This document shows, piece after piece, positions 23,837-41,966 of a DNA stretch of 64,000 bases. The translations under genes were made by a program, and so were the position numbers. The stretch's first letter is position 1. Each line of letters starts with the position of its first letter. The stretch is from an uncultured virus (IMG/VR IMGVR_UViG_3300030044_000012) (Duplodnaviria > Heunggongvirae > Uroviricota > Caudoviricetes), in IMG/VR virus record IMGVR_UViG_3300030044_000012; one strand, given 5' to 3'. The notes beneath the pieces were generated by a model, which was given only the letters and a program-made list of their open reading frames with translations, did no database searches and was not told where the DNA came from.

Positions 23837-23842
23837 GTAACT

Positions 23843-24041: not shown

Positions 24042-24271
24042 CACATGTCACCGTTCGATTACTTTTCGGCATGTCACCGAACGGGTACAAACTTGAGCCG
24101 GGGCTTACCCGGAACAGCGGACTTACTCCGACCGCCGCCCGTGGGCTCGGTCACTGCGTCTGCCAGAGGATTTACTCACTCGACCTCTGCTACACTTCGA
24201 AAGAGGCAACATATTACCTATTACACGGTCAAATCGCACATAACCGGCAATATGTTGCCTTTTATCCAACT

Positions 24272-24360
24272 TGGTGTACCCGGAGGGACTCGAACCCCCG
24301 TGGAGAACTTTCGTTCAACAGATTCGTAGTCTGGTGCCTCATCCGCTAGGCTACGGGTAC
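24272..24360 (-). tRNA. tRNA-Arg(ACG) with long variable arm
   Basis: V-arm GAAC-GAAA-GTTC and CCA end. Confidence 0.88.
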
Positions 24361-24452
24361 ATGGTGAAACTAAATCCGCCCCCTTTGCCATTTGTTGTCG
24401 CGAACAACGCCGCTTACGCGGGAACCGATTTGAACGGTCTCAGGGATGGTAC

Positions 24453-24528
24453 TGGGGCACCCGGTGAGAATCGAACTCACGACCTACTCCTTCGGAGGGA
24501 GCCGCTCTATCCACTGAGCTACGGGTGC
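24453..24528 (-). tRNA. tRNA-Arg(CCG)
   Basis: Loop CT-CCG-AA and CCA end. Confidence 0.92.
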
Positions 24529-24757
24529 AAAACTTAAGCCGGGTCTCTCCAGCCGGGGGTCACTCCACTTCGACTTGCCATTCAACCTAACTTCGGACAT
24601 CCCGAAGGTCTATTGACTGTCTTCACCGCCGAGTGGCGGAACGTCACGCAAGGTGTCGCGTTCTCGACGTAGATTCTAGCGGTGGATTTCCTTCAGGGTT
24701 TCCCCTTACTGGTATTACATCCCTTTCGGGTACCGCACTGTCCACGTCGAAACTTAT

Positions 24758-24833
24758 TGGGGCGGCTGGAGAGATTCGAACTCTCGACTACCTGAGCCAC
24801 AGTCAGGCGTTCTACCGCTGAACTACAGCCGCC
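24758..24833 (-). tRNA. tRNA-His(GUG), G-1 encoded
   Basis: Loop CT-GTG-GC, G-1:C73 pair, CCA end. Confidence 0.92.
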
Positions 24834-24847
24834 ATAAAAACAAAACT

Positions 24848-24928
24848 TGGGGCGAATGGTGGGAATTGAACCCACGAGACCACGGTTTCACAGACCGGAG
24901 GCACATACCAACACTGCCGACAAACGCC
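24848..24928 (-). tRNA. tRNA-His(GUG) variant, G-1 encoded
   Basis: Loop CT-GTG-AA, two T.T acceptor mismatches, CCA end. Confidence 0.8.
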
Positions 24929-25046
24929 ATAAACTTTGGGGTCTCTCCCTCCCGTCAAGCCGACACGTCTGGCTTTCGACCTATTACGCTCATGTTGTCA
25001 AACATCATCTCGATTTGACCTGAGTCAATCGGAATATCGTACATCT

Positions 25047-25134
25047 TGGCAGGGGTGGAGGGGGTCGAACCCTCAGTGAGCGTTACGCTCGGCGGTTTTG
25101 GAGACCGCTGCATTTCCAACAATGCTTCACCCCT
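25047..25134 (-). tRNA. tRNA-Trp(CCA) with long variable arm
   Basis: V-arm GAGCG-TAA-CGCTC, G73, CCA end. Confidence 0.88.
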
Positions 25135-25166
25135 AAAAACAAAAAGCCCTAGCCGGTGGCTAGGGT
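25135..25166 (-). terminator. attenuator terminator 1
   Basis: ACCCTAGCC-ACC-GGCTAGGGC plus TTTTTGTTTTT, abutting tRNA-Trp. Confidence 0.88.
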
Positions 25167-25195
25167 CATGTGAATCCAATCTGGCGGCTTAGGAG

Positions 25196-25297
25196 TTAAT
25201 CATCCCAACCCTCCACGACGGAGCACAGACCCATAGCATGGCGCTGATTTCGCTTTTGCCACTGGTGCCGCATCGGATTGGACTGTTTCATCGTCAT
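25196..25297 (-). CDS. attenuator leader peptide 1 (MTMKQSNPMRHQWQKRNQRHAMGLCSVVEGWDD)
   Basis: TAAGGA SD. Codons match the downstream tRNA set. The 3' half forms the antiterminator. Confidence 0.82.
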   Translation of the reverse strand: MTMKQSNPMRHQWQKRNQRHAMGLCSVVEGWDD

Positions 25298-25466
25298 GGT
25301 GATTCCTTATGCGAGGCGTCTTCACAACCTCACTTACTTATAGTACCCGAAGTCGAGATATTTACAACACTATTTTTTGATTTATTTTCGAAAATCTGTG
25401 GAAAACCCTAAATTTGACAATTTCAGCCATTTCCGTTAAAACTCTTCTTGCGTCGAAAGGAGCGTC

Positions 25467-25859
25467 ATGCCTACCGCCACATACCAATGTGACAAGTGCG
25501 ACCATCAGCCATTCAAGGCCCCCACTGCTCTTGGGAGGCACAAACTATCAGCCCACGGAATTCCCGGCAACTCTTCTTCATCAATTGCCTACCGCAAGGC
25601 CAAGGAGGCTAATGCCCTTACTTCAAAAAGATCACTCGCAGCAACGAAACCCCCGCAAACGCATCAAGCTACAAATCGTCTCCCGAAACCCGAGAGCCAC
25701 CAAGCTGGCTACCAAAACCAAATCCCCGAAGGTGCCCTCGCCGTTGCCTTCGGGCGCTTCCAAGAACTTTGCCGCAGCTTTGCATTTGAATATGACTTAC
25801 CTCCAAAGCTGTTTACCTCCCGGCTCTCTCAACTTATATCAGCCTCGGCGGTACGGTAA
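25467..25859 (+). CDS. C2H2 zinc-finger protein, divergent from leader 1
   Basis: CDKC...F.....LGRH...AH motif, AAGGAG SD, TTGACA at 25414. Confidence 0.75.
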   Translation: MPTATYQCDKCDHQPFKAPTALGRHKLSAHGIPGNSSSSIAYRKAKEANALTSKRSLAATKPPQTHQATNRLPKPESHQAGYQNQIPEGALAVAFGRFQELCRSFAFEYDLPPKLFTSRLSQLISASAVR

Positions 25860-26336
25860 CCGTCTTGGGGTTCCCTGCGTGTGTCAGCAGTGTGGCGACC
25901 GGCCACCCAACTACATTCGACCTTGGAATCGTTGGCGGTGGATGAACTTTCACATGTTCGTTCGTCATACGCTTAAGCAGGTTCCGATGGTGACGGACTA
26001 ACCGCGTACCTGAGTGCTTCAAGCACTTGTTCTGCGAGGGTCTTATCGGCACCGTCGATACTTGATGTGTGTCTTCCGTACCTATCTGGGGCGGTAAGTT
26101 CTACGTAAGCAGAACCCCGCTCCACTGTAATGGAGATGTTGCAGTCATCGGGTAGGTCTCGGGCTGCTTCTTGAATGGCATCCTGCAACGTGGGTGCGGT
26201 TGCCCTCAACTCAACCCGCCCACCGAGACAGAGAGCTTCAACCTGTCTATCTACGAAGTCTCGTTTAAGGGCATCTTCCAGACTGGAGTAGTCACACTCC
26301 CACATCTCTTGAGACACTGAATCACGTAGCTCCATG

Positions 26337-26603
26337 CTAACCTCGTTTCCAGTTGTGAAGCTCTTTACCCACATGGGGTCGTTTCTGAATCCACGCTATC
26401 CAAGTTTGAACATCTGGATGCGCCTTGAGTAAATCAATCGTGTTGAACTCGCGTTCTAACTGCTTCTCAGTGAAGAGCCGGTGAATCTGGCTATGACAGG
26501 GGCGACAAATCCACTCCGTCTTATTGCGGTCGATACCCAGTTCCCGCTTCACTTTTTTGTTATGACGCGCCTTCGGGATGATGTGGTGCCTCGTCAGCCT
26601 CAA
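26337..26603 (-). CDS. small HNH-like protein (YisB-like)
   Basis: LTRHHIIP...ICRPCHSQIH motif. Confidence 0.7.
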   Translation of the reverse strand: MRLTRHHIIPKARHNKKVKRELGIDRNKTEWICRPCHSQIHRLFTEKQLEREFNTIDLLKAHPDVQTWIAWIQKRPHVGKELHNWKRG

Positions 26604-26927
26604 CTCATCCCGTTCGCATACTTAAGTCCCTACTTACCTTCGGGGCGTTTGTCCAAACCTTTTTCGGCGAGAACTTCCGCCACGTCGTCAACATGCAAGC
26701 AATCACACATACAGGCGTAGTCATTCGGTGGCTGAATCGCGGCGATATTGCCATTGCAGTAGTCGTTCCCCGGCGTCGCGCTATGCAGAACACCGAAAGA
26801 CACTACCTTTCCGTCCTGTAGCTTGATGATCTTGTCGCCATTCTTTGCTTCACGTCCATTGCGATAGTGCATGTCATTCTCCTTTGCTCCCGAGGGAGTC
26901 AAATAGTTTGCATATTCCTGTCATGGC

Positions 26928-27452
26928 TTAGTCGTGACTGTATCCTTCAGTTTCAATCTTGACGCCATTATCCTTCTTGGTAACGATGACGCTAACGTGG
27001 TCACCGAACATGGCCTCGTAATCGTCGCTGCAAAAAAGGCCAAGGAATTCACCGAGGGCCTTATGAGCCGCGTGCTTCGAACTCTCTTCCTCGGTGACCT
27101 GCCTCTTGACCCACTTATACTTCGTCTGTTTGACAGTCCGACCACGCCAGTCGGTTACTTCTTCCTCCCCATCACACACCCGGTCAGAGTCCCTGAAGTG
27201 GTATTCATTCAAATCCTCTTCATCACCAAACTGGATGTAGGGATCATCGGTGTGTGCGCTGAAAGTACACGCATCGCCATCATTGAAATACGGAGTGTAC
27301 TGCGTCCAACTGAAGGCCACCAACTTTGGGTGCTCTTCAAAAATGGTTTCAACGGCCTCTTTGAAAAGCCGCTTGCCAGTATCCTTGATTTCCTTCTCAA
27401 GCTCCTCACGCCGCTTGCGGAAGGACTTTAACTGCTCAATTGCGTCTGCCAC
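26928..27452 (-). CDS. conserved phage protein
   Basis: WTQYTPYFNDGDAC.F motif. Confidence 0.7.
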   Translation of the reverse strand: MADAIEQLKSFRKRREELEKEIKDTGKRLFKEAVETIFEEHPKLVAFSWTQYTPYFNDGDACTFSAHTDDPYIQFGDEEDLNEYHFRDSDRVCDGEEEVTDWRGRTVKQTKYKWVKRQVTEEESSKHAAHKALGEFLGLFCSDDYEAMFGDHVSVIVTKKDNGVKIETEGYSHD

Positions 27453-27453
27453 C

Positions 27454-27843
27454 CTAGACCTCTTTCCTGATCGGTTTGTGTTTTACAACTTTTGCAAAAG
27501 ATGGTGGGGCTCCCATGCCTTTGACCATCCATTCCTTCATATCTATTTCTTGAAGGAAGTCCTGTGCCGAGGGGATGTATCGGCCACCGTAGTCTTCTAA
27601 TACGTGCTGCTCGCCAACATCACGAACAGAAACTAATCGACCATCGCTGTTTGTAATGTTGTGCCCGAAAATCTTCTCCAGAATCACAGAGAGAAACCAA
27701 GCATTGTGAGTTAGGGCTCGATGGCGACTATCTGCTATTTGTCCTTTTGAAGAATCAAGCAAGTCATGGATGGGGAGGTAGTCTTCCGGTTTACCTCCCC
27801 ACTTCTTTACAGAAGATTGGGCATGGATGTAGGGCTTAGCCAT
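27454..27843 (-). CDS. DUF6915-like protein
   Basis: HA.SS.KKWGG..EDY..IH...DSSK...D.RHRALTH motif. Confidence 0.75.
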   Translation of the reverse strand: MAKPYIHAQSSVKKWGGKPEDYLPIHDLLDSSKGQIADSRHRALTHNAWFLSVILEKIFGHNITNSDGRLVSVRDVGEQHVLEDYGGRYIPSAQDFLQEIDMKEWMVKGMGAPPSFAKVVKHKPIRKEV

Positions 27844-28010
27844 TATCCCTCATGTTTCAACTTAAAAACCTGCTTCGCCACATCGCTGATGACGCTGCCG
27901 CAGTCGGGGCAATATTTCGTGATAAACAACCGCGACACACGAGCCACTGGGACCACGATGTGATGGCAGCTAGAGCAACGTTCATGTACACAACCAGTGG
28001 TACGCATGGT

Positions 28011-28670
28011 TTACTTCCAGCGGGTAGGGTTGTAGTCAGCGGCGTCCCGTTCTTTCTGCTTTGCTTCTTCAGCTATCTTAGCCATTTCAAAATCAGCAAC
28101 CGCCTTTTTGAACATACGATTGGAGATTGACTGCAAGGATTCAGCAATCTGAGTGTAGATGGTGCGAAACACCCTGCGGACAGGGTCATTGATGAGTGTC
28201 CACAGACCGGAGAACGGCCAATAGGTCATCCACATCATGATGTCACTTTTATGTGACCCAGCCTGTGGGGGTAGTTGGTACCCGTGTTCAAATGTTTCTT
28301 TGAACCTCAAAGCTTGTTCCGGGGTCTCAATAGCTTTGAGTCCTTGATGCTGAAGCCAGACGGTTTTCTTCTCGTTGTGCTTTTCAAGCTCCCGGTTGAC
28401 GTAAAGGAACCATTTGATGATGCCCCAGACTGTGCCAATGACGAAGTAGCTGACAATCAGCCCCATAGTTTTTCCCTCATTGTCAGTAACCCAATGAAGG
28501 GCTTCCCGGAAATCAGCCCCGGTCAAAACGATGAGAGTTGCGATGAGAGTGAGGAAGGCAAAGAACCCCTTACTGTTCTCTACCAAGGCAGTGATGATTA
28601 TGATGGCCGCGATGAAGATGACCCATCCCCACAACGTGCCAAACGCTAATGCTGCAAAGAGTGTAAACAT
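28011..28670 (-). CDS. membrane protein
   Basis: Several hydrophobic segments and a WMTYWPFS motif. Confidence 0.7.
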   Translation of the reverse strand: MFTLFAALAFGTLWGWVIFIAAIIIITALVENSKGFFAFLTLIATLIVLTGADFREALHWVTDNEGKTMGLIVSYFVIGTVWGIIKWFLYVNRELEKHNEKKTVWLQHQGLKAIETPEQALRFKETFEHGYQLPPQAGSHKSDIMMWMTYWPFSGLWTLINDPVRRVFRTIYTQIAESLQSISNRMFKKAVADFEMAKIAEEAKQKERDAADYNPTRWK

Positions 28671-30164
28671 AGTTACCAACTCACTTTCAAAATAACGTCG
28701 GTAGTCCAGTAAGGCTCCGAGGAGCCACACTCACCCCCGCTGTTCATGTACGCTGCTGTTTCATCAACCTCGTACGAAGTTGTCGTCAAGATAGCCGTGT
28801 AGCCATCCCTCTTCAAACGTCGGATGACCAACTTCATGTCATTCTTATATTCAAAGAGGTTCTCGTAGGATTTGAGGCTTGAATAGTTCTGAATGCCAAT
28901 TCGACACTCAGTCTTTCCATTCCTCACGGCATAGTTTATGTTTGCGTGGACTTCCGCTTCAAAGTCCTCTCTCCACTTCTTGCGCTTGGTGTGTTCAAGA
29001 GCCTTCTTCTCAGCGGCCTGTTTTGCCTTCGCAGCGCGTTCCGCACATGCCACGATTGGCGCGTTTTCCTCCGCCAATTTCCGTGCTTCCGTCGCCTTCA
29101 TTTATTCTCCTCGACTGGCTTGTACAGCTTCCTGACAGTTACAGATGAGTCTTTTGCAAGAAGATCAGCAGCATCATCGGCCTTACGTAGAGTATCGAAC
29201 GATGCAGTTGTTGTACTGGAAGACACACCAGCGATTCCGCCTCGCCGATAAGACCCGTACCCCACTTCAATTTGGTGATACATTGTTACGGTTGTGGTAA
29301 TCAGAAGCTGATAGCTCATTCGACTACCTCAATCGTGACTCGAATCTGTCTACCAGCAAACTCACGAGCGATGCTGTGGGCTGGTGACTTTCTTTTGTCC
29401 CAGTCTTCATGGGATTGCAGGACGACGTTGAAAGCTCGATCAACCTGAGGGTCGGACAAGTGGTAGCGCAAAGTGAAACCATTGTCCTCCCTCGAATATT
29501 TGATGGGCTCCCGGCTTAACAGCACAATCTTTGGTGGAGCTACCGTTTCACTCAAGGCTAATCTCCCGCCGTTGCTGCTTTTGAAGATTCCCAATCCAAC
29601 ACCACATCTTCCTTGTGAAGAGGCTGTGTGACCCTCCACGAATTGGTATTGGTGATGATGCGGTCCCAATTGTTGCACCGCATGTTGCTGAGAAGGATTG
29701 AATCATCCTTGGTTGCACGGGCTTCGACCTCGGCAAACGTCTCCACCTTGCCACCGAGATAGTACGTGGGGCTGGTTGCCGACACTTTGGAATCAAGGTC
29801 TTCAGAGTTACGAGAACGGGTGGTGAAGTAGAAAGCAAACGGTGTGGCATTATGCCGCTCCTTGATGCCACGAGCCATCTGTTTCGCCTTCTCTACATCC
29901 CACGAATCAATCTCTTTCGAGGTCTCTTCATGGGAAAAAGTACCGGGGCTGAGAAACGTCACAAAGTGTTTTTTCATGTTTAGTGCCACCATCCAAACCA
30001 AATCCCCCAACCATGAACAACAGCGATGGGGAAGAAGATTGCACCCGCAATAAGAAACCCCCACAGATGCTCATTGAAGCATGTGTAAATGTGCTGACAC
30101 CATCCAGCAAAGGTAACGGCAAAGATTGCCAGAGTAAACAGGCAACCACCGATAGATGCGTTTC

Positions 30165-32126
30165 TCATAGATGTCCTTCCTTCTTCCAGTGGTAAAGCAT
30201 CGCCTCTACTACAATCTTGTTGATGGCCCCACGATCACACAGGGGTGGCAATGGAGACACCTTCTCCGCTTCAACCACAGCTTCGCGAAGTCGGTTGTAC
30301 TCACTCGTAACACGCTCGATGTTCCACCCACCGTTACGGATTTCGAGGAGTGTCGATACATTCGGACGAGGGAAGGTCATAGTTCCGGTCTGCAACAGTT
30401 CAAGGCATTCATCCATAGAGCGAACCATGTGCATCGCGGCCTTGCAGTTTCCTTGAAATGCGGGACGACCTTGACTGCGAGTGACCAGTGTGCCCAACGG
30501 CATTTCAAAGCAGACAACCCGGTGATTTTCCACTTTGATTTCCTTGATGGGGTAACCATACTTCTGCTTCGGCTCCTCTCCTGCCCTCAGGATTCCACTT
30601 TTGAAGTTGACACAACGAAACTGACTTTGGTCAGCGGGGCGGTACACCTGATACATCGGAATGTTTCCTAATTTGGTTTCATCTCGGTCGTATTCATAAG
30701 GACCGTTGACCACACAAATATGCCCTGAAGACACCATCATTGCTTGAACATCATCGGCCAATTTCTTAACCGATGTATAAAGGAGGGTGCCTTGCCCATC
30801 CTTTCTTTCTTTCTTGGTACGATAACCATCACCCAAGCAAAGACTGTTCCATAAAATCCACGCCTGTTCGTAGCCCAATTGGAAACACCAATCAGGTAAA
30901 TGCTTAGCCTTGTGGTGACCGAAGTCCTCGTATAGCTTGTACGCCAGCTTCCTTGGGAAGGTCCAAACTGTCTCATATTCGACGTGTTCGCGTGGATAAT
31001 CATAGCGGTGCCCATGGAAAATTGTACGCAGCCTATCTGCGTACTGGTAATACTCTTCTTTGCCTTCGGGTGTTTGCACAACCCTAACGCTCTTCACCCT
31101 CCCCTCGCGAAAAGAGATGCTGCCCTCTGACAGGTATAACCCAGCCAGTGACAGGTATTCATCCATCACATCGTATTGATAGATGCGTGGTGAGGCCGAA
31201 CGAGGAGTATGGTACATCGAGCGTACAACTCGGGCTTTAACCCCGCCCATGAGGTCTGACAATTGAACGAGACGCCAATCGGCTTTACCGGGGTAATATT
31301 TTGTGCTGAATCCTAATTTAGGGTTTCTGGACGCAGGGGATGCCACCATATTGTGGTTGGGAGTCACAACACAGCGAGTGAGTTGAGGTTCAACAACGTA
31401 CATGAAACCCGAATGATATTTATCAATCCTCCGCAGCGGAGTGTCAAATCGCACAGCATCAAACCGCACGCCGGATGTCTGTCCCTTAATGAAGTCAAAC
31501 GTGGCTAGTTTGTCCGAATCAAGCACATCATCAAATCGCTTCCAACCGTGGTCAGTGAGAAACTCTGTTTCAGAATCAAGGTAGCAATCGTACCCATGGG
31601 CAGCTATCAAATCATCCCTCTGACCATGTTTCCCGGCTCCCTGTAGCCCCAACAAGCGGTTGTACTGGCTCTTCCCTAGTCCGAGGAAGGCCGCAGTGTG
31701 TCCAGAGGCAAGGAAGAGGCTCCTGTGAGGTAGAATGTAGGTGTCCCATACGCTCGGGTGAGTCACATGACTATCCTTGATGGGTTCGGGAGCGAATAGG
31801 TAGCTGAGGATGGTAGGGTTACCCTTCATGGCGAGTCCCGCCCAGCGCCTGAGAGTGTAAGCTTTAAGATCGGTGTCATCAGCCGTGTTCTTTTCGTATT
31901 GGTCGGACGTTCCCTGTGTGATGTGTCCCTTCTGTCGAGGGTCTTCATTTCCGAGGGCGAGTTCGAACACAGGGTCGCCGATGTACACACCGGCCACATC
32001 GAGGTCGGACTTCCCTTCGATACGGGCTCCGTGCATTGAAGAGCCTGACGCGAAGGCAAGAATCACCTGATCCAACCTCAGCATCGGATTTCTCAACAAC
32101 ACATTAACCAATTCACCGTTAAGCAC
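30165..32126 (-). CDS. DNA polymerase-beta-superfamily nucleotidyltransferase (RlaP/YcgL-like) with intein
   Basis: GS..HG.....SDLD..GVY, KGNP..L..LF, GYD|..|CKAAMH..R motifs. Confidence 0.85.
   Translation of the reverse strand: MLNGELVNVLLRNPMLRLDQVILAFASGSSMHGARIEGKSDLDVAGVYIGDPVFELALGNEDPRQKGHITQGTSDQYEKNTADDTDLKAYTLRRWAGLAMKGNPTILSYLFAPEPIKDSHVTHPSVWDTYILPHRSLFLASGHTAAFLGLGKSQYNRLLGLQGAGKHGQRDDLIAAHGYDCYLDSETEFLTDHGWKRFDDVLDSDKLATFDFIKGQTSGVRFDAVRFDTPLRRIDKYHSGFMYVVEPQLTRCVVTPNHNMVASPASRNPKLGFSTKYYPGKADWRLVQLSDLMGGVKARVVRSMYHTPRSASPRIYQYDVMDEYLSLAGLYLSEGSISFREGRVKSVRVVQTPEGKEEYYQYADRLRTIFHGHRYDYPREHVEYETVWTFPRKLAYKLYEDFGHHKAKHLPDWCFQLGYEQAWILWNSLCLGDGYRTKKERKDGQGTLLYTSVKKLADDVQAMMVSSGHICVVNGPYEYDRDETKLGNIPMYQVYRPADQSQFRCVNFKSGILRAGEEPKQKYGYPIKEIKVENHRVVCFEMPLGTLVTRSQGRPAFQGNCKAAMHMVRSMDECLELLQTGTMTFPRPNVSTLLEIRNGGWNIERVTSEYNRLREAVVEAEKVSPLPPLCDRGAINKIVVEAMLYHWKKEGHL
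30447..31586 (-). mobile_element. intein with LAGLIDADG endonuclease (380 aa)
   Basis: Starts CYLDSETEFLT..GWK, block B VTPNH, LAGLYLSEG and LCLGDG, ends FQGN|C. Confidence 0.9.
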
Positions 32127-32744
32127 AACTACCCCCCAGTGATCCTAACCAAGTCGGGGCAGAATTCGCCCAAGATGGAGAGAAGAATCAATTCTTCAAC
32201 GCTGTGGAGAGTTCCGTCATTGGCAACCCTCGGCCCGTTAGCGATAATGGCCGAGATTGAATCCTTAGCCCATTTTCGCATTTCAACAGTCAGCCTTTGT
32301 CTACTTCAATCCAAACAATGGGCATCATCCACCTCGTTATTGACCATTAACCATGTTGCCAATGTCGCTTGGGGTCAAGACCGCAATCTGTTCTGTCGGC
32401 ACACCAGCAAACAAATTCCACAACAGAGTTAACCGCTCCGCACGAGGACCGTACATTGAATATGTCGCTCCGTCATCGGCGAGTATCTGTGCTGCTCCGC
32501 CGTGATACTCCGTACCCGACATGTCCACTGTCCAATTCTGATTGATGTTCATGACGCTCACTTCCCTTCACTTGGGGGTGTTGTAATATGCCGCGTACCC
32601 ACTACCCGGCACTGACCAATATGCCGTTTTCCGTTCAGGATACCGGGCGTGAGAATACGCAATACAGTCTCCGATTACAAACAACCCCCACAAAACAACC
32701 CAAAGTGTTAACAGGTGTACTCTTGCCATGAACTCCCGGATTTC

Positions 32745-33491
32745 TTACAGCGTGTGTTCGTATTCCTTCTCGTCCCACACTTCGATGTAGTAGGACTCTT
32801 TATCAACGCTACGTCCGTTATATGTGGACAGTGAGACAATCAGGAAAGGGTCCGGGTCGCGTTGAACGATGGTCTGTTCGCGCTCGACCACCAGTTGGTC
32901 AATCTGGAACTCCGCCTCGGGCAGCAATGCTTTGATTTGTAGTGCCTTTGACAGAACAAACTCAGGAACCGCGCCGGGGTAGCCTTTCAGTGAATACGTT
33001 TGCCACTTCTTGTTCTTACGCCAGCCGCGCAGGTCGCCATTGAACGTATAAACCCATGCGGCGATTTGGAAACAAACAATACCGGCAATGGATAGAACAT
33101 TGAACACGTCACCCACAACGCCCCAAAAGCTGAAATCAGGGTAGTTGTGTGAGACAGGGAGGGAGCAGCTAAGAATTAAGGCAAGCGCAAAGCACAAGCC
33201 GAAGTGGAACACCGCCCATTTGTGACCAGACCAGACACCAAACTTTTCCTTGCTCAGCTTGTAGGCTTCGACCTTCGATGTCACCAACGGAGGAATCTCC
33301 AATTTACAGAGAGCCCCACGCAGAGTGCTACCTGTTGCCTTGAGCAGCTTGTTATAACCCAAGACACTGGAAGCCTGTTCCCCCAGTAGTTGAGTCGTCT
33401 CATCTGTGCGAAACTGCACCCGTTCAATTTCAGAAGGCTTCGTCATTAAACTCAGCATTGTTGTTCTCCATACAACTGTTTTTCGTTCCAT
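32745..33491 (-). CDS. membrane protein
   Basis: Two TM segments. GGTACACT 6 nt before the ATG at 33491. Confidence 0.7.
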   Translation of the reverse strand: MERKTVVWRTTMLSLMTKPSEIERVQFRTDETTQLLGEQASSVLGYNKLLKATGSTLRGALCKLEIPPLVTSKVEAYKLSKEKFGVWSGHKWAVFHFGLCFALALILSCSLPVSHNYPDFSFWGVVGDVFNVLSIAGIVCFQIAAWVYTFNGDLRGWRKNKKWQTYSLKGYPGAVPEFVLSKALQIKALLPEAEFQIDQLVVEREQTIVQRDPDPFLIVSLSTYNGRSVDKESYYIEVWDEKEYEHTL

Positions 33492-34478
33492 GTGAGCAGT
33501 GTACCTCATTTCGAGTAGGTTGAGAAGAGTTTAGTTGATTATCTTGTCATCGCACGAATATAGTAACGCAAGCAACCACCAATACTACAAAAACCCAAAT
33601 CATCGCGATTGCGGTGCCGAAGTATTTCCATGTGGCTTCGTAGAAAGGCATGTATTCATCAAACGCTTTACTGTACTCGCTGAATGATATTTTACCTTCT
33701 CTGTGTAGGATTTCGTACTTGGTTAAGCGCCGTGAGGCTTCCATATACTCCTTGCCAGCACGTATATAGTAAATCGGACTTAACACAAACTCTTTGATTG
33801 TCATGCCCCTTAGTTCCTTTCAATCGTACAAAGTGACCGTAGTCTTGGCGGTCATCGGGTGTACATGAATCGCCCGTACTGGAGTGCTCATGAACCCTTT
33901 GGTACTGAGAAGTTCCTTGGCAAAAGCAGCTTCAAACTCTTCCTTGTTTAAGTATGCTATGTACTCAATGTAATGCTCAGTGGAAGCCGGATACCCATGC
34001 CCCGGTGCCCACTCCCCCACCGATTCTGTGGTGTAGGAGGAGCCTTTGATAATCACCCAGTGTTCACAGGCCGGTACCTGCTCCGGATTGCGAACGTAGA
34101 TTACAGTTGTTGGATAGGGCATACATTTTCCTTTGGGGGTTTGTTCAGAGTGCGAATGCGTTGCAGCATCTGGTTGTGAATGGTGCGAAGCCGGGACACG
34201 CTGTCATTGAACTGAATTCGTTGCTCATAGGAGGCGTCTGGTTTGGGCTCAAACTGATGCATCGAACTCATGGATATTTTGAAGACAGCCTCAGCGGAGT
34301 ACAGCAAAGCACCCCGGACGGCCTTTGCGTGTTCTTTGTGGCGGACGTGAACTGCTTTAAGGATAACGTTCATGACGTTCTGATAGCTCTCCACGTTATG
34401 GAGAACCTTCGCTCGTGGGTGGTGCCCCTTGGTAGGACTCACCTTGGGAGAACTGTGTCTGTAGGGCACTTACACACC

Positions 34479-35528
34479 TCAAATGAGAATCATGTTTCCC
34501 TGTTGGTGGTAGACGAAGTTGGCATCCAGCATTTTCATCCACTCTTCTTTAGTCGCCCGAAAATCATCAAAGGTGGTTGCATTGACAGCACACCACTCAC
34601 ACAAGGCTTCAAGCGTCTTGAACACCGGGCTGGTAGGCTCTCCCTCATTCGTGGTGCTCCAAAGCTGGAACCCAATACCCTTGGGTGGTTCCTTCTTTTT
34701 CCAAGAGTCGCACCTCTTCTTATGTGCTGGGGTAAACCAGACAGAGCCACTGCCCTTGCAGTGAGCACACTTCGTGGTGCCCAGCTTCTCCCGCTTCATC
34801 CGTGCTCTGATACACGTCCACGCTGAACCTCCACCGATAAGCGCATCGATGCTCCAGTCATTGACTTCCTGCGGAGTGGGCACACGACCGTTGTGAAAAG
34901 TCTTCCATGGTTGCCAGTTCTTCCTGCCCTTCCAGTTGGCTGCACTACGCCGTTCCCGCTCCTCATTATTGAACTTCTCGACAGCGTCGAACTCAACCTT
35001 TTGCTCCTCGTTGAGTGGATGCCGGGTGAGATGCCGGGTGAAGTCTGTTAACTGATTATCATCAAGAAGAGCTTTGACATCAGCTTCATTCAGATGATGC
35101 ATCCAGCGACAGTTGAAAAGTTCGGCGAGACGGTTTCCTTCTCGTTGGATACTCCCTTCAAGCCACTCATACCCCGCGAGGTAGGCGTCGATGCCCTTCT
35201 CGTTCCACAATTTCCAATACACCTCAACGCCCTGCATGTACCCTTCCCTACCCGGTGCCGCTAGATGAGTCATCAGGACGTTCTTTATTGCGAAGGAGCG
35301 TACGACGGGAGAGTCAGCAGTGTAGGGAGTAGAGCCGTTATCTTCTGGCTGGAATGTGGTCTTCCCATACCACATATCCGACAGCCGTTTGGCCTCAGGA
35401 CTCTCACCTGATCCTTCGCAGAAGGGGCAGTTCTTGTGATCCTTGTAGTAGGGGTTGATGTACCCCTTCCAAATTTTGCCAATAGGGGCATTGAACTTCA
35501 ATGGCACCCGTTTCAGTTCACGTCCCAT
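34479..35528 (-). CDS. conserved phage protein with DnaJ-like CxxCxGxG motifs
   Basis: MGRELKRVP, CPFCEGSG, CAHCKGSG and EPP.G.G.QLW.TT.EG motifs. Confidence 0.75.
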   Translation of the reverse strand: MGRELKRVPLKFNAPIGKIWKGYINPYYKDHKNCPFCEGSGESPEAKRLSDMWYGKTTFQPEDNGSTPYTADSPVVRSFAIKNVLMTHLAAPGREGYMQGVEVYWKLWNEKGIDAYLAGYEWLEGSIQREGNRLAELFNCRWMHHLNEADVKALLDDNQLTDFTRHLTRHPLNEEQKVEFDAVEKFNNEERERRSAANWKGRKNWQPWKTFHNGRVPTPQEVNDWSIDALIGGGSAWTCIRARMKREKLGTTKCAHCKGSGSVWFTPAHKKRCDSWKKKEPPKGIGFQLWSTTNEGEPTSPVFKTLEALCEWCAVNATTFDDFRATKEEWMKMLDANFVYHQQGNMILI

Positions 35529-35888
35529 CGCTTATTTCCTTTCAGGGTCGGTACAATACGACGAGCAAGGTTGGAGAACGTTCCAACCCCGCTTATCGCC
35601 TCCGACACTATGTTACTCGGGCACAGGCTCATTTGTATCCGAGAGCCTCACGCTCTTGAGGATTCAGTTTGTTGAGAGCCTGTTCACGCAGCTTGTTCTC
35701 TTGCTCCCCCTTGTATTCTTCGTAGGTATCAAAAATGATAAGTTCAACGGCACGAACAGTTCCGTCGGCACCCCACCAACCTGTGCCTTTGGTGGCTCTG
35801 GTGCCATCGGCAGCGTTAACAAAATAACCCACGTGTGCGTCACTACGTTCGTCTTGAGGGACTCGGGCTTCAAATGCACTGATACGTT

Positions 35889-36305
35889 TCATGCGGCTTT
35901 CCTCAATTCTCTGATGGTCTCCCACACGTAGGTGTCGGGTACCCACATCCATCTTGGCCCAGCCATCTGGTTCTGGTCGATATGGATGGCAAACTTCACG
36001 AGATAGTAGTTACCTCTTCTCGGTTCACGGTGGTACCCTTCAATGGTGGCTTGATAGAATGCCCCATTATCGTTAACCCACACGTTGGTGTCGTTGACGA
36101 GGATGCGATTGTCGTTGATATGAGATGGGGCACGCCGGGGACGAATCACAGCGACGACTTTACTGTCAGGAAGAGTGTGTAGAATCAACCACTCCAACGC
36201 GGTTCGAGCGGCCTGAGGGGCAAGTCGAACCCACACAATGAACAGAGTGGTTGAGAGGATTTCAACTACAGCCACGCCAAGGAGGACACTGATGAAGTAA
36301 CCCAT
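35889..36305 (-). CDS. hypothetical membrane-anchored protein
   Basis: First gene after a promoter motif, with an N-terminal TM segment. Confidence 0.65.
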   Translation of the reverse strand: MGYFISVLLGVAVVEILSTTLFIVWVRLAPQAARTALEWLILHTLPDSKVVAVIRPRRAPSHINDNRILVNDTNVWVNDNGAFYQATIEGYHREPRRGNYYLVKFAIHIDQNQMAGPRWMWVPDTYVWETIRELRKAA

Positions 36306-36338
36306 GCTCCTAGTATACCTGTACTCGGGGTGTTTTGG
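36306..36338 (-). promoter_or_regulatory. phage promoter CCAAA-N14-GG-TATACT
   Basis: Exact spacing, 6 nt before the ATG. Confidence 0.75.
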
Positions 36339-36920
36339 TTACAAATTTCAGAAACTTTTTACAACCTGTACTTAGGGTGCTTATCCGGCTCAGTAATTCC
36401 CATGCTTTTTAGGATGTTACGCAGCTTCCGTGCCTCAAGATTGCGGACAGAGTAGCCGGTACCGCAGGGGCAGGAATCACACCCCGGCTTGCCGCAACCA
36501 AGGCATACTTCAACCTCAACGCAGCCAAGTTTTTCGGCCTGTTCCTTGAAATTTTCAAGGTGTTTGATCTGTGCTGATAGATTCATCTGGTCTCCTTAGA
36601 AGATGGGCAGCGAGCCATCCAACGGGTAGATGGGTTTGGGTGGGTGGGTGGAGGGTGTTGGTGTGTCTTGTTTTCTCATCTTCCCACTTTTTCATAAGGG
36701 TTTTCCTGTGCCGAGTGAATGGTGACTACACCTTCTTTGTTGTTTCTTTCCACTTCACAGTAATCGCACCACTCGCAGACAATGTGTCCCATGACCGAGT
36801 AAGTACCGTCGCCGTTGTCCAATAGATGCCTCAGCGTATTTGACGGCCTCTTATAAACCTCGGTCGCTGTTTCGAGGTTGAAGCGTTCGCGTTCAATGAA
36901 GTTCATTTCCCCTACTGGAC

Positions 36921-37334
36921 TCATAGCTCTTTCACTTTCTGAATGGCGGAATGGTCGTCCTGTTCCAGAATCTTGCGTTCGGAATCGAGATCACGCTTCA
37001 ACGCACGGGCGGCTGAGAACTTATCACCATAACGTGCTCTCAGTTTGGCGATGTTGGTGCCCATGAGTTCTTCGAAGCTGGCATCAAGTTCATGGATGGC
37101 AATAGCGAAGTACCATAGGGAGTCGCCGATTTCTTCCTTGAAGTTTACTTCATCAACGGTCTTACCATAGAAGAGCGCCTTTTTGATAGCGTCGAGCAAC
37201 TCACCGGCCTCGGTTGCGGCACCAATGGCAGCGTGGAGGAGTTGAATGTTGCGGTTGGTCAGTCGAGCACGGATGGCGTCGAAGTCTTGACTATTGGTTA
37301 CTATGGCATTTTCGATGTATTCGGTAGGGTTCAT
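36921..37334 (-). CDS. MazG-like NTP pyrophosphohydrolase
   Basis: G.ATEAGELLD..KK, EEIGD.LWY and NIAKLRARY motifs. Confidence 0.88.
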   Translation of the reverse strand: MNPTEYIENAIVTNSQDFDAIRARLTNRNIQLLHAAIGAATEAGELLDAIKKALFYGKTVDEVNFKEEIGDSLWYFAIAIHELDASFEELMGTNIAKLRARYGDKFSAARALKRDLDSERKILEQDDHSAIQKVKEL

Positions 37335-37725
37335 GCATAACTAATACTGCATTTAGGAAACTGTCGGGGAGAAGATGTAGCCGTGCTGCTTCCCCCATTC
37401 AATCCAAATTTTGCAGAGCGGGTCGAGACGGCCTCTAACTTCCTCCGGGAAATGGGGACACTGCTCCTGAACAATGGTGCCAAGCAGAGCCATCGCCGCC
37501 CATGGGTCAAAGACACCAAGGGTGGAGCTATCTTCCCCTACATTGTGGTAGTAGTCATGCAGGTCATAAATCAGGTGAGGAATGACCTCGGTGTTCATGT
37601 TAAGCATCGCTTGGAAAGCGGGGTGCTTCCACACAGTCATGGACATGACAGCAGTCTCGTCGGAGTAGACGGCCATGTACTCACGATATTGTTCGTAGGA
37701 TGTCATGGGGGAATTGTACACTAGT

Positions 37726-37819
37726 TGGTGGTGGATGAGGGAGTCGAACCCGTCCCGGCACGCCAATCTAGCGTTTATCAGGGTGTATAAATCCCCGCCG
37801 CACACCGATGCTATCCACC
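37726..37819 (-). tRNA. atypical tRNA with UAU anticodon (Ile or allo-tRNA-like)
   Basis: Acceptor GGTGGAT/ATCCACC, loop TT-TAT-AC, long V-arm, bulged T stem, CCA end. Confidence 0.65.
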
Positions 37820-38331
37820 ATTTTCATTTTGTCTTTATATTTCTTTGTGTTCTTCCCCTTATACGTTGGGGTTAATGTATGACAATTTGGACAAATGAAT
37901 CTCAAGTTTTCTATTCGATTATCTTTCTTATCACCGTTTACATGGTCTAACTCAATGGGAATAGGGTGATTTTCCCACATTGTTCTCCGGCATTCTTCAC
38001 AACGATGCTCTTTAATCCCCTCTGATATTAGCCTCCTCTTCAAGCTATTGAGGTTTTTATAAGTGGAGTCTTTAACAAGGATAGAGGATAGAGGTGCCCT
38101 GCGCCCCCAGTTGCGGGTATGGTTAACCATCTTTAACCCATGGTTCCACCCCTGTCCTTTCATGTGGGATACATCTACACTTAGTCGTTTTGCGGACAGC
38201 ATTAACGAGTAATGTGTGTTTCCCTTGGCTTGCTTCCCTAACACCTTAGCCACTTCACGCCATGAAAAACTTATACGTACAGCTTCTATAAATTGTTCAT
38301 CAGTCCAACTTCTACTTCTTCCCATACCCAT
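37768..38331 (-). CDS. HNH endonuclease ending inside a tRNA
   Basis: CEEC, LDHVNGD..DNRIENLRFICPNCH motifs. Confidence 0.88.
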   Translation of the reverse strand: MGMGRSRSWTDEQFIEAVRISFSWREVAKVLGKQAKGNTHYSLMLSAKRLSVDVSHMKGQGWNHGLKMVNHTRNWGRRAPLSSILVKDSTYKNLNSLKRRLISEGIKEHRCEECRRTMWENHPIPIELDHVNGDKKDNRIENLRFICPNCHTLTPTYKGKNTKKYKDKMKMVDSIGVRRGFIHPDKR

Positions 38332-38393
38332 TGCTCCTAACTAACAATGGATTCGGAAGTTGTAAAATAAACTGGTGCGTGTTAACTTATTTG

Positions 38394-38481
38394 TGGTAGG
38401 GCTGGTGGGACTCGAACCCACACCGTGCGAAACGGACCATCAGATTTTAAGTCTGCGTGATATGCCATTCTCTACAGCCCC
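38394..38481 (-). tRNA. tRNA-Leu(UAA)
   Basis: Loop CT-TAA-AA, V-arm, A73, CCA end. Confidence 0.9.
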
Positions 38482-39211
38482 AAATTTTACTTCTTAAATC
38501 CCTTGATACGTTCTTGTGAGAGCGTAGCCACCGACCTTGGCTGCGGCGGATGTTCAATTACTTCCCTGAGGCGCTCGGTGAACACTCGCCCGTATTCAGC
38601 ATCGGCCTGTTGAACCGCCTCAAACAACTCCGGGGTGCGATTCTTCACGTACGCAGTTGAAGCTTGAAGCAGATGGGCTCTTGCAAGTTTGACGGGCTCG
38701 TAGCTATTCAACTGGTCTACTTGCTCATCGGATAGTGTCTTGGTGTCTTCAGCCATACCTACCTAATACTCAAATTCCATACGATTGGCGTCATCCAGCT
38801 TAACCCAAAAGCGACAACCTTTCACCTTCTTACCAGAAATACGACTGGCGTTAAACGTCACCGAATCAAAATCCTTCGAGCCGTTCCGGATGTAAATCCG
38901 ATGTAGCTTAAGGACTGTACCCTTTGGCAGAGTTACCTTGGTAGCTGCCATCTCCTTCCGCCAATCGTTCACACACTTGAGCCCGAAGTGTTCAAACATC
39001 CCCCAATTACGAGACTCATGGTACAGGAGGAACGTCCAATCGCTGGCAGTCGTGAACTCCGTCCCCAAAGCGGGAATAGACATCCGTTGCTTCTTCATCG
39101 CTCACCCCAACTCATCTTGCTACGCATCGCTTCAAAAAACCCACTGCTATGGAGCCGCACTAGATTCACCGTGTGCTCGGAACGGCATTGACCTCGGTAC
39201 TGCACTTAAAC

Positions 39212-39299
39212 TGGCGGAGGCGGACGGAGTTGAACCCCCAAGTCCTTTCGGTACGTCCCGTTTCGAGCGGGGTGGGCTTGCCACATGCCCAACGCCTCC
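39212..39299 (-). tRNA. tRNA-Ser(CGA)
   Basis: Loop CT-CGA-AA, V-arm, G73. Confidence 0.9.
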
Positions 39300-39451
39300 A
39301 TTTTACAACTACCCTATATCGTTCTCAAACTTTCCTTAAATTTTGGTGGGGGTACGCAGTACGCAGCTTGGCTCTATCCACTTCAGGCTTGGCATAGGCT
39401 GCTTTGTAGCGTTCCAATGCCTCATTAACCTACATTATACCTCCAATATCA

Positions 39452-39538
39452 TGGCGGAGAGCCGAGAACACGATTCCCAAACCCGAAGGTTCCATCTGTT
39501 TAGCAAACAGCGCCGTCAGCCCCAACGGTTGACTCTCC
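39452..39538 (-). tRNA. tRNA-Ser(GCU), 8/4-type fold
   Basis: GGAGAGTC/GGCTCTCC, 4-bp T stem, T loop ATCGTGT. Confidence 0.8.
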
Positions 39539-39542
39539 ATTT

Positions 39543-39617
39543 TGGTCGGGCCAGAAGGATTCGAACCTTCAACCTAGAAATTATGAGTTTCGTGCTCTAC
39601 CCTTGAGCTATAGCCCG
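39543..39617 (-). tRNA. tRNA-Ile2/Met(CAU)
   Basis: Loop CT-CAT-AA and CCA end. Confidence 0.88.
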
Positions 39618-40166
39618 ATTTGTTCTTCCAGTCCAGCCTTCGAATGCCCCCGCTTGCCTAGCTGCTCTAAGTCCATCTAACAAAAACAACCATGCAGCGT
39701 AGGGTACTGACCCCCGAAAGTAATTGCACCGAATGCAAGCCGCTTTCACATTGTCCTTTGTGTGCCCCCTTGTGTTGTCAATCCGGTCGAGAGTCATCCG
39801 AAGTTCGGTCTCTCCACAGTAAAAACACCCATCAGCAATCACAGCACTAACCCAATTACGGTCGAGGTCATTATCTCTCCTTTTCAATTTATCACTTCTC
39901 TTACTGTCGTTAGTGATAAACTTTCCCGTGTATTTTGGGTCTTTTCGGTACTCCCTTACTCTCTTGTTTGTTCTCTGTTTATACAGAGGGTCGGCGGCGC
40001 ATCTGGAAAGATAAGTCTGTTTCTTCCGAGTGTTCCGTTTTTTGTTATCACAGGTTCTGCAAACTTTCTTGATGTACTCACTACCACCAGTCCGGTTTGT
40101 GTAGAACTCGTCCCTGTGTTTAGGCATCTCGCATCGCTTACAAATGATAATAATTTCAGTGTCCAT
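39597..40166 (-). CDS. HNH-like endonuclease ending inside a tRNA
   Basis: CFYCG....TLDRIDN..GH..DNV..AC..CN motif with N-terminal CxxC pairs. Confidence 0.82.
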   Translation of the reverse strand: MDTEIIIICKRCEMPKHRDEFYTNRTGGSEYIKKVCRTCDNKKRNTRKKQTYLSRCAADPLYKQRTNKRVREYRKDPKYTGKFITNDSKRSDKLKRRDNDLDRNWVSAVIADGCFYCGETELRMTLDRIDNTRGHTKDNVKAACIRCNYFRGSVPYAAWLFLLDGLRAARQAGAFEGWTGRTNRAIAQG

Positions 40167-40206
40167 ACCAATGACACTGATAGTTCATTTTGGCGGAATG
40201 CAAGTT

Positions 40207-40294
40207 TGGCGGAGAGTAATTGCATCGAACAATTATCCATCACTGGATACTATGGTTTTCAAGACCATTCGGGGAGCCAACCCCAGTACCCTCC
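40207..40294 (-). tRNA. tRNA-Ser(UGA)
   Basis: Loop CT-TGA-AA, V-arm, G73. Can fold 8/4 or 7/5. Confidence 0.82.
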
Positions 40295-40983
40295 AAATTT
40301 ATTTGGGCGACTCGGGACACCATCCGGTATACAGTTGGTGAGGTATCCCTCGCGTTTCGCACGATAGTCCACCGAATACCCGGTCACCTAGACTTACCGC
40401 TCCACCCTTCGCTAATACTTTCCCTGTGCAGGATTTGAACCTGCGGTTCCCCGGTTCTTTAGGGCGCGGTGACCGCTCCCGAGGAATCTATGTCACCGTC
40501 AGCATTAAACCACTCTGCCAACAGGAAAACTTATCTTTCCCACGCCACCAGCGGAATCTCAAACGGCGGGATTTCCACTTTGCAGTATGGCTTGTACTCA
40601 TCAAACTTGTGCTGACCGGGCAACGCTTCAACCCAGTAGCAAATCTCTTCTGCGAACACATCACTGAACTTCTGACGCCAATACACGAACCACTGCTTAT
40701 CTGCGTTCCACCGGGCGATACTCGCATTCCGGCAGCTTCCAAGATAGTAGGCTCCGTGTTCCAAATCTTCGAAGGCTACCATACCTTTCTTGTGCTTCTC
40801 AGGTGTCGGGCACTCACTGTATAGTTCACGTCGGAAGTATTGTTCTGCTTCTTCTCGTGATGTGCCTCGTGCCATGGAACTGGCTACACATCGTTCAAAC
40901 TCGGCACCGTAAATTTTGTTGCTCCCACAAAAGCAACACAGCATATCTACCGCGTTGAAGTCAATCATAGCACCCTTTCAAAC

Positions 40984-41071
40984 TGGCGGAGTCGGAGAGA
41001 TTCGAACTCTCGATACCTTTCGGTATGCACGTTTTCCAAACGTGTGACATAGACCACTCGACCACGACTCC
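40984..41071 (-). tRNA. tRNA-Ser(GGA)
   Basis: Loop TT-GGA-AA, V-arm ATACC-GAAA-GGTAT, G73. Confidence 0.92.
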
Positions 41072-41075
41072 GTGT

Positions 41076-41107
41076 AAAACAAAAAAGCCACCCGATTTGG
41101 GTGGCTT
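41076..41107 (-). terminator. attenuator terminator 2
   Basis: AAGCCACCC-AAATC-GGGTGGCTT plus TTTTGTTTT, 4 nt before tRNA-Ser. Confidence 0.88.
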
Positions 41108-41130
41108 CTGGAAACTTGTTGAAGACTTGT

Positions 41131-41223
41131 TCAATCCCAAGTATCAACACTTCCGCCACCACCGCGTCCAGTTGAACTGGACGAGCTAGATGAGGAGGTC
41201 GATATGGATAACGTGTTCTTCAT
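41131..41223 (-). CDS. attenuator leader peptide 2 (MKNTLSISTSSSSSSSSTGRGGGGSVDTWD)
   Basis: Eight consecutive Ser codons using all six synonyms, plus TTA and ATA. The 3' half forms the antiterminator. Confidence 0.85.
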   Translation of the reverse strand: MKNTLSISTSSSSSSSSTGRGGGGSVDTWD

Positions 41224-41966
41224 GACTGTATACATAATACGCCGAAAGTTGAGAAACCTGCAAACTATTTTTGAATTTTTTCGTGCCAGTCTTCTGGGTA
41301 GGGTGTAAGCTCTCCATTTTCAATAACTTGCTCGTACAAACTTCTCGCTTGATAATTCGTATAACTTACCGTGGAGTCCTTTCTACCCTTGCCCCCATGT
41401 CCCATATGGATTTTTTCGCACCATCTACATAGATAGAACTCCATCTTGTCACGGTGCCGGTGTGGGATGTCTTCGAGTGTGAGAGCACGGGCGTATGCCT
41501 CGGCGACCGAAGAGTGACACAGCTTACCAGCGTTGCCGTTGCCAATACACTCATGTCGATGAGCGTGTCCTCCGACCACCGCCACACGTGGAGAGGGAAC
41601 CGGCTTTCTGTTCACTGAAAAAGTGAAGCCGCAGCCGACGCAGACAACATATGCCCCCTTCTTCTCCGGGCTAACGATCCCGGCGCAAAGAGGACAGAAC
41701 TTGATGTCTTTCTTTTTGAGGTGGTCACCCATCTGATTTTGGGACGCACAGATGTTCAGCGATACGTTCAAGGGCGATGGCGATTCGCTCTTGCGTAGAA
41801 CTGCCTTGGGCAAGTTCGACTCTCTTTAACAGTCGTTGTGCAAGCCGCGTCTTTCCATCCCTAACCCCTCGGGCATACGTGTCTTCGTAGCTGTCTGGAA
41901 ACTCTGCTCCCACGGCCAGAATCGTATCACTAGCTACCAACCTTAGAAACTCTTCTTCAGCAGTAT

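Follow-up and report, generated by a model that had tools for sequence, protein, structure and literature searches.

Two probable leader-peptide attenuators before the tRNA gene blocks of an uncultured large phage

A 64,000-nucleotide stretch of DNA (the window) from the uncultured Caudoviricetes virus IMGVR_UViG_3300030044_000012 was analysed, and the same order of parts was found in it twice, once at the head of each of its two tRNA gene blocks. Each of the two units is composed of a promoter-like motif, a short leader open reading frame (ORF; 33 codons in unit 1 and 30 in unit 2), a long hairpin and a terminator, followed by the first tRNA gene. This layout had been proposed in an initial annotation, and all of its parts are present in the sequence. 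We confirmed that the anatomy is real and not due to chance. The two units are likely paralogous transcription attenuators of the ribosome-mediated (leader-peptide) type, which would gate the phage tRNA blocks by decoding shortage, and the phage probably makes these tRNAs only when ribosomes are short of them. The best reading is classical attenuation logic on a new target, tRNA genes, with a multi-tRNA test panel.

Unit 1 (25376-25135, minus strand) stands before tRNA-Trp. Its promoter-like motif (25340..25376) begins with AAAATAGT, followed by TTGTAA-N16-TACTAT (25367-25340), with a TCTCGAC-TTCGG core. Between this motif and an AAGGA at 25308-25304, located 6 nt 5' of the ATG, there is a 5' stem-loop. 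Leader ORF 1 (25297-25196, minus strand) contains 33 codons plus TAA and encodes the peptide MTMKQSNPMRHQWQKRNQRHAMGLCSVVEGWDD, with its control codons 2-20 at 25294-25238. The long hairpin predicted as antiterminator 1 (25158..25237) holds the TAA stop in the loop at its apex and the 5' arm of the terminator in its 3' base. Intrinsic terminator 1 (25135..25165, minus strand) comprises a stem-loop at 25165-25147 with an 8-bp stem (6 GC) and a 3-nt loop, and the tail CTTTTTGTTTTT; its hairpin folds at -13.4 kcal/mol. It was the top one of 34 terminator-like sites given by the terminator scan for 13000-32000, and its end is 12 nt upstream of tRNA-Trp, whose 5' end is 25134.

Unit 2 (41271-41072, minus strand) is arranged in the same way before tRNA-Ser(gga). 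Its promoter-like motif (41234..41271) starts again with AAAATAGT, continues with TTGCAG-N18-TATTAT (41263-41234) and has a TCTCAAC-TTTCGG core; the upstream ORF has its TAG stop within this motif. Leader ORF 2 (41223-41131, minus strand) has 30 codons plus TGA and encodes MKNTLSISTSSSSSSSSTGRGGGGSVDTWD. The control codons 5-17 (41211-41173) are TTA TCC ATA TCG ACC TCC TCA TCT AGC TCG TCC AGT TCA. In the predicted antiterminator 2 (41099..41163) the TGA stop lies in the loop, and the base of the hairpin, GGUGGU/GCCACC, takes up the terminator 5' arm. Intrinsic terminator 2 (41072..41109) comprises a stem-loop at 41109-41083 with an 11-bp stem and a 5-nt loop, and the tail TTTTTTGTTTT. Its hairpin folds at -17.9 kcal/mol, it ranked top among 17 terminator-like sites in 32000-50000, and it ends 11 nt upstream of tRNA-Ser(gga) with its 5' end at 41071. 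Through the folding of both leaders, we found the stop codon in the apical loop of the long hairpin in both units, as the initial annotation had described.

The leaders had at first been regarded as unrelated in sequence apart from a common end. This holds for the control regions, which differ between the two units as their arrays do when compared within the genome, and it does not hold for the units as a whole, as alignment revealed a promoter-like motif of about 45 nt common to both. The pattern TTCGG-N(1-3)-TANTAT occurs at two places in the window, namely the two units; AAAATAGT occurs at four, two of which are the units; and six places, both units among them, have TTCGG after TCTC[GA]AC matched with up to one mismatch. 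We read units 1 and 2 as paralogues with a putative common promoter. The TGG-GAT (Trp-Asp) end noticed at first was also recovered: the heptamer TTGGGAT occupies 25201-25207 in leader 1 and 41134-41140 in leader 2 (minus strand), at or just before the stop and near the apex of the antiterminator hairpin, so that leader 1 ends in ...GWDD and leader 2 in ...TWD. Common descent of the leaders could account for this heptamer, which might otherwise signal pausing or release.

All tRNA genes of the window are on the minus strand. ARAGORN called 21 of them, Rfam called 21 with a slightly different list, and ARAGORN at a relaxed threshold called 25. Block 1 (13866..25134) carries Trp, two His, Arg(ccg), Arg(acg), Trp, two Asn, possibly Leu(taa), Met(cat), two Gln(ctg), Lys(ctt), Arg(tct), Arg(cct) and three Lys(ttt), with small ORFs interspersed, and its anticodons are CCA, GTG, CCG, ACG, GTT, CAT, CTG, CTT, TCT, CCT and TTT. 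Block 2 (38394..41071) carries Ser(gga), Ser(tga), tRNA(cat), Ser(gct) (relaxed call only), Ser(cga) and Leu(taa), with interspersed ORFs including an endonuclease-VII-like gene (39597-40166); its anticodons are GGA, TGA, CAT, CGA and TAA, plus GCT at the relaxed threshold. The system had been placed at 25047..41260, an interval outside which most of array 1 (13866-25134) lies. Two further calls at the relaxed threshold were weak. One is the Leu(taa) in array 1 (23458-23548, minus strand), which also has an Rfam tRNA match of 36.8 bits; the other is an Ile(tat) at 37726-37819 (minus strand) that overlaps ORFs and, if real, would also read the ATA of leader 2.

The codons of the leaders were compared with these arrays under standard wobble rules, with a background taken from codon usage in 40 long ORFs (together 11,966 codons). 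The tRNAs of array 1 can read 18 of the 33 codons of leader 1, where the background is 0.252 (binomial 3e-4), and for codons 2-20 the figure is 15/19 (1.4e-6). Those of array 2 can read 14 of the 30 codons of leader 2 (background 0.113; 1.3e-6), and 12 of 13 among codons 5-17 (5e-11). The cross-matches were not significant (leader 1 with array 2, 6/33; leader 2 with array 1, 5/30). Nine of the eleven array-1 anticodons are represented in leader 1, and all six array-2 anticodons in leader 2. The codon match exceeds chance, and it extends to the level of the codon. Leader 2 uses all six Ser codons, and its sole Leu codon is TTA, the phage's rarest for Leu (64/1,011, 6%), while its sole Ile codon is ATA, the phage's rarest for Ile (68/587, 12%); array 2 carries tRNA-Leu(taa) and a tRNA(cat) at 39543-39617, which would read ATA if it is a lysidine-type tRNA-Ile2.

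We also scanned the whole window with sliding windows in six frames (about 128,000 windows). At least 12/13 array-2 codons were found in leader 2 only, and the only places with at least 15/19 array-1 codons were leader 1 and one tandem repeat (59859-59758) with stop codons in it. Each leader is the stop-free window-wide maximum for the codons of its own array, and lies less than 150 nt from the head of that array. The tandem repeat as a whole (59728-59865, minus strand) lies inside an ORF (59721-61094) with a TPM-domain match, and in the off frame it reads QRWRQWFRQLR plus stop codons.

The folding results point to alternative pairings in both leaders. Compared with dinucleotide shuffles, the whole fold of leader 1 gave z -2.68 (2/200 shuffles as good), and that of leader 2 gave z -5.18 (0/200). 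The free full-length RNA folds to the terminator with a probability of 0.99 in unit 1 and 0.98 in unit 2. In the free RNA of leader 2 the Ser-codon run (41211-41173) pairs with a Gly-codon run, which is the classical 1:2 pairing and would serve as an anti-antiterminator. For leader 1, pairing of the terminator 5' arm in the antiterminator gains -12.3 kcal/mol; when the intervening segment was shuffled 500 times, the gain was -3.5 +/- 2.6, and two of the shuffles were as good.

The ribosome was modelled as a 30-nt unpaired footprint around the A-site codon, and the decision state as a transcript cut just 5' of the terminator 3' arm. In the cut transcript of leader 1, with the ribosome at codons 1-16, 7 of the 8 nt of the terminator 5' arm are paired in the upstream hairpin; in that of leader 2, with the ribosome at codons 1-17, 6-7 of 11 nt are paired. 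Ribosomes placed at codons 18-32 of leader 1 or 19-26 of leader 2 leave the arm free. In this model the long hairpin with the stop codon in its loop is functionally the antiterminator, and by the time a ribosome arrives at the stop codon, it must have opened the 5' arm of the antiterminator. Such footprint folds had been proposed as a check in the initial annotation; leader 1 switches even at equilibrium, where a ribosome at codons 8-16 brings the probability of the terminator down from 0.99 to 0.23-0.65 (0.97 at codon 5), and leader 2 switches only before the terminator 3' arm exists.

From the anatomy, the codon match and the alternative pairings, all of them obtained in silico, we infer translated leader ORFs, working terminators and a physiological trigger, and the following mechanism is proposed. 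Transcription would start at the phage promoter common to both units, and the short ORF would be translated while RNA polymerase heads for the terminator 11-12 nt before the first tRNA. The default state would be off, either with no ribosome or with a ribosome running through the control codons; a ribosome running through would unwind the 5' arm of the hairpin, so the terminator would form and no tRNA would be made. The control codons would be those for Met, Lys, Gln, Asn, Arg, His and Trp in unit 1, and the six Ser codons with TTA and ATA in unit 2. When a cognate charged tRNA is scarce, the ribosome would stall, the antiterminator would form and hold the terminator 5' arm, and the polymerase would carry on through the tRNA genes and their interspersed ORFs. 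With these tRNAs supplied, the stall would be relieved and the gate would close, and each set of tRNAs would be made on demand. As in multivalent attenuation, a shortage of any one of the sampled species should be enough.

The array-specific codons, the terminator abutting the first tRNA and a mutually exclusive hairpin stronger than in shuffles support the attenuator reading of the initial annotation in silico, and several observations weigh against it. In leader 2 the equilibrium probability of the terminator is at least 0.98 at all ribosome positions, that is, there is no equilibrium switch; because no equilibrium shift was seen, its switch must be kinetic and occur before the 3' arm is made. 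In the trp attenuator, too, the terminator is the more stable helix and the choice is kinetic. The antiterminator gain of leader 2 (-10.7 kcal/mol against -5.3 +/- 2.8; 22 of 500 shuffles as good) is marginal. When the footprint sits on the last or the stop codon (codons 33-34 of leader 1 and 28-31 of leader 2), the 5' arm still pairs across the masked stretch, a pairing which we judged sterically implausible. Both promoters match the sigma-70 consensus at 8/12 positions, under the 9-of-12 cut-off, so they are unlisted by the consensus scan. Leader 2 has no Shine-Dalgarno sequence, and its predicted 5' untranslated region is only about 4-6 nt.

Further points of this kind concern the codons and the arrays. 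Among the 848 small ORFs of 20-60 codons in six frames, leader 1 ranks third and leader 2 about fourth at the whole-ORF level, and similar whole-ORF fractions are reached by Arg/His/Trp-rich or Ser/Leu-rich off-frame ORFs. Each leader had been said to list the codons of its own array. The 15/19 and 12/13 matches and the non-significant cross-matches agree with this for the most part, though leader 1 contains no AGA or AGG in spite of tRNA-Arg(tct) and tRNA-Arg(cct) in array 1, and has a CAA for which there is no tRNA(ttg); four of the 19 codons in its control region are foreign. The tRNA-Ser(gct) (39452-39538) was called only at the relaxed ARAGORN threshold. The ATA match requires that the array-2 tRNA(cat) be of the Ile2 (lysidine) type, and blastn did not settle its identity: against phages, the tRNA(cat) genes matched mostly T4-like tRNA-Arg, which gave no decision between Met and Ile2. 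The tRNAs are dispersed among ORFs over 11 kb in block 1 and 2.7 kb in block 2, and given this, internal promoters may bypass the gate.

Nor was a relative carrying the leader and tRNA regions found among GenBank phages, IMG/VR, the Joint Genome Institute (JGI) metagenomes and GTDB genomes. With the two leader regions as blastn queries, GenBank phages yielded either no match or tRNA-Ser alone. Tblastn of the 653-aa nucleotidyltransferase of the window (30165-32126, described below) and of rIIA gave identities below 60%, and 25-36% among the matches listed. Three proteins, the promoter pattern and two 20-mers from tRNAs were used to scan IMG/VR and revealed no relative; the sole match was an unrelated tRNA array cut at a contig end, and it was rejected. 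An alignment-based IMG/VR scan gave four loci of 27-28% identity with 0-1 tRNAs each, and the scan of GTDB genomes gave nothing. The metagenome scan found three short contigs of a relative, with the nucleotidyltransferase 78-85% identical in the scan's best segment and 83-86% in alignments, and these contigs contain no tRNAs or leaders. By exact look-up, the leader-1 peptide has no homologue besides itself in its 90% cluster, and neither version of the leader-2 peptide is on record.

DNA of the window is present in 24 public runs listed, all labelled peat metagenome and one of them RNA. Contigs show no RNA ends, strand or level, and contig cover of the region in an RNA library is no evidence of transcription. 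One RNA-library contig (depth 12.1) matches about 25093-25231, from the end of leader 1 through the terminator and the 5' half of tRNA-Trp. It carries many substitutions and indels at 25183-25212 and then a different 3' part of the tRNA, and may come from a related phage.

The initial annotation had also suggested that other phage tRNA arrays be scanned. We applied the same scoring pipeline to four GenBank phages (Sinorhizobium phage Phosso, Synechococcus phage S-CRM01, Escherichia phage PBECO4 and Mycobacterium phage Catera), in each case to the 40 kb or 24 kb that surround the tRNA arrays, and 29 array-head tests gave no convincing analogue, which again speaks against the proposal. The pipeline gave p = 5e-5 and 1.3e-4 for the two units described here, and the lowest p values of the survey, from codon scoring only, were 1e-4, 2.2e-4 and 3.7e-4. 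The case with p = 1e-4 was rejected as a single tRNA(tat), for which the wobble rule wrongly counts ATG, and that with p = 2.2e-4 lies inside an annotated 120-aa coding sequence. As no convincing case was found in the 29 tests, the signal is not an artefact of the pipeline, and the element is not universal.

The trigger of the proposed gate was considered together with the other genes of the window. We found genes for a Ku-like protein (616-1587), an RlaP-family (RNA-repair) nucleotidyltransferase of 653 aa (30165-32126, minus strand), an NAD-dependent DNA ligase (44851-47028), an RNA ligase (54584-55834) and a Thg1-like tRNA-His guanylyltransferase (61702-62562); rIIA and rIIB are also encoded. 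Such a clustering of genes for nucleic-acid repair points to a phage that mends damaged tRNA besides replacing it. In the 653-aa nucleotidyltransferase the Pfam RlaP match is confined to residues 20-159. We take the rest to be a putative inserted intein, presumably recognisable by its LAGLIDADG-type motif LAGLYLSEGS and its end ...GN|C.

Several tRNAs of normally class I type have a long variable arm or extra length (all minus strand): Trp of 88 nt (25047-25134), Asn of 89 nt (23651-23739), Lys(ttt) of 91 nt (13866-13956), Arg(acg) of 89 nt (24272-24360), Arg(cct) of 89 nt (15275-15363) and His of 80 nt (24848-24927). For each of Trp, Asn, Lys and His there is an ordinary 75-nt twin in the same array. 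The CCA end is encoded in all tRNAs inspected. The long-armed duplicates may be nuclease-evading or otherwise specialised.

A tentative extension of the attenuator reading, which we consider possible though on balance doubtful, is a surveillance circuit for tRNA integrity. The panels of test codons would report depletion of host tRNAs or their cleavage by anticodon nucleases, the matching replacement block would then be transcribed, the long-armed duplicates may escape the nucleases, and the RNA-repair enzymes encoded nearby would act alongside. The context for host tRNA cleavage as the trigger consists only of the RNA-repair genes in the window, and host tRNA cleavage, demand or feedback control of the tRNA supply, and amino-acid starvation cannot be told apart here as triggers.

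The units might instead be a general sensor of translation capacity, in which any slowing of the ribosome, by amino-acid starvation, host shut-off or ribosome shortage, opens the gate, and the choice of codons only tunes the sensitivity. The predicted switch is indeed set by the position of the ribosome and not by the cause of the stall, and classical attenuators respond to the supply of charged tRNA, which drops in starvation too. However, a general sensor has no need for two non-overlapping codon sets, each matching its own array, nor for the rare test codons TTA and ATA, and we regard this explanation as unlikely.

Somewhat less probable still is that chance has placed ordinary terminators or insulators, or structured 5' leaders for tRNA processing, behind untranslated small ORFs, with the tRNAs made through partial read-through or from other promoters. 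Small ORFs are plentiful in the window (the 848 mentioned above), the promoters are sub-threshold, leader 2 is without a ribosome-binding site, and the searches and runs examined gave no support from conservation or expression. On the other side, it is very unlikely that chance would twice put the window-wide codon maximum of an array within 150 nt of its head, each time with the codon set specific to that array; the antiterminator pairings are stronger than those of shuffles; and a terminator between a promoter and a tRNA 11-12 nt further on has no obvious ordinary role. The reading of the leaders as functional micro-peptides (a basic 33-mer and a Ser/Gly-rich 30-mer), with hairpins that stabilise or process the transcript and a codon match that is incidental or tunes the yield, is very improbable: both peptides end in W-D(D) encoded by the common TTGGGAT and the leader-1 peptide is a called gene on 10 contigs, but this peptide stands alone in its 90% cluster, the heptamer sits in a hairpin loop and could equally be a signal at the RNA level, and the array-specific codon sets and the overlap of terminator and antiterminator are left unexplained.

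Multivalent attenuators are known from the amino-acid operons of enterobacteria, such as ilvGMEDA (Ile/Leu/Val) and thr (Thr/Ile), besides the trp, his, leu and pheA leaders. The attenuators proposed here resemble the ilvGMEDA and thr type in the short ORF close to a putative promoter, with clustered regulatory codons of several kinds, in the intrinsic terminator overlapped by an antiterminator, in an upstream segment that would sequester the antiterminator without a stalled ribosome, and in a terminator that is more stable than the antiterminator, with a kinetic choice between them. They differ from it in that the regulated genes are not those of biosynthetic enzymes but tRNA genes, coding for the very molecules that would be sensed. 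Unit 1 would sample up to seven amino acids and nine anticodons, and unit 2 all six codons of one amino acid and two rare codons. The stop codon in the antiterminator loop, the location on a phage and the lack of a sequence or Rfam match to known leader families are further differences.

The pheST attenuator of Escherichia coli has a leader peptide that controls an aminoacyl-tRNA synthetase operon. The phage units are like it in the proposed ribosome-mediated attenuation of a component of the translation apparatus by the supply of cognate charged tRNA, and unlike it in that they would control tRNA genes, through many codon types, instead of a synthetase through one. With T-box riboswitches they share a leader RNA whose choice between terminator and antiterminator would report the state of specific tRNAs; a T-box binds uncharged tRNA directly and has no translated ORF, whereas the phage units have a leader ORF. 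Through cmscan of the whole window at Rfam gathering scores, and at E <= 1 for 13000-42000, we found only tRNA or tmRNA-like matches and sub-threshold matches over the tRNA genes, and no match to the known leader families (His, Trp, Thr, Leu) or to the T-box.

In the accessible text of two papers, phage-encoded tRNAs act as counter-defence against tRNA-cleaving host systems (eLife 2023, PMC10264068; Nature 2024, PMC11464382). The phage analysed here is like those cases, as far as that text describes them, in that scarce or destroyed host tRNAs would be replaced, and it encodes an RNA ligase, Thg1 and the RlaP-family nucleotidyltransferase. The accessible text of both papers (PMC10264068, PMC11464382) concerns the function of the tRNAs; a sensor that would gate their transcription is proposed in the present analysis, and none was found in the literature searched. 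The initial annotation knew of no description of multi-tRNA attenuators controlling phage tRNA arrays, and this stands so far: no description of leader-peptide attenuation of tRNA genes was found in the full-text literature, subscription-only literature being outside the coverage. The single paper in which a tRNA operon, a leader peptide and an attenuator all occur refers to the tRNA operon in a different context.

As to the phage itself, the 64-kb window is part of an uncultured large phage genome. The exact leader-1 peptide is a called gene on contigs of up to 310,335 nt, and since the longest of these 10 contigs carries it, the source is a jumbo phage of which the window is only a part. HNH and endonuclease-VII-like genes are located among or beside the tRNA genes (37768-38331, 39597-40166 and 56411-57631), and are probably homing endonucleases.

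The role of phage tRNA genes has long been debated between codon compensation and the replacement of tRNAs destroyed by host defence. If the attenuator reading is true, the phage measures decoding capacity and supplies tRNAs on demand with built-in feedback, and leader-peptide attenuation would extend from amino-acid biosynthesis to tRNA genes. The units would also offer a compact and portable part that reports the in vivo availability of chosen tRNAs, and the debate on phage tRNAs would become testable by asking which stress opens which gate. Should the more tentative surveillance reading be true, phage tRNA arrays would be inducible counter-defence modules.

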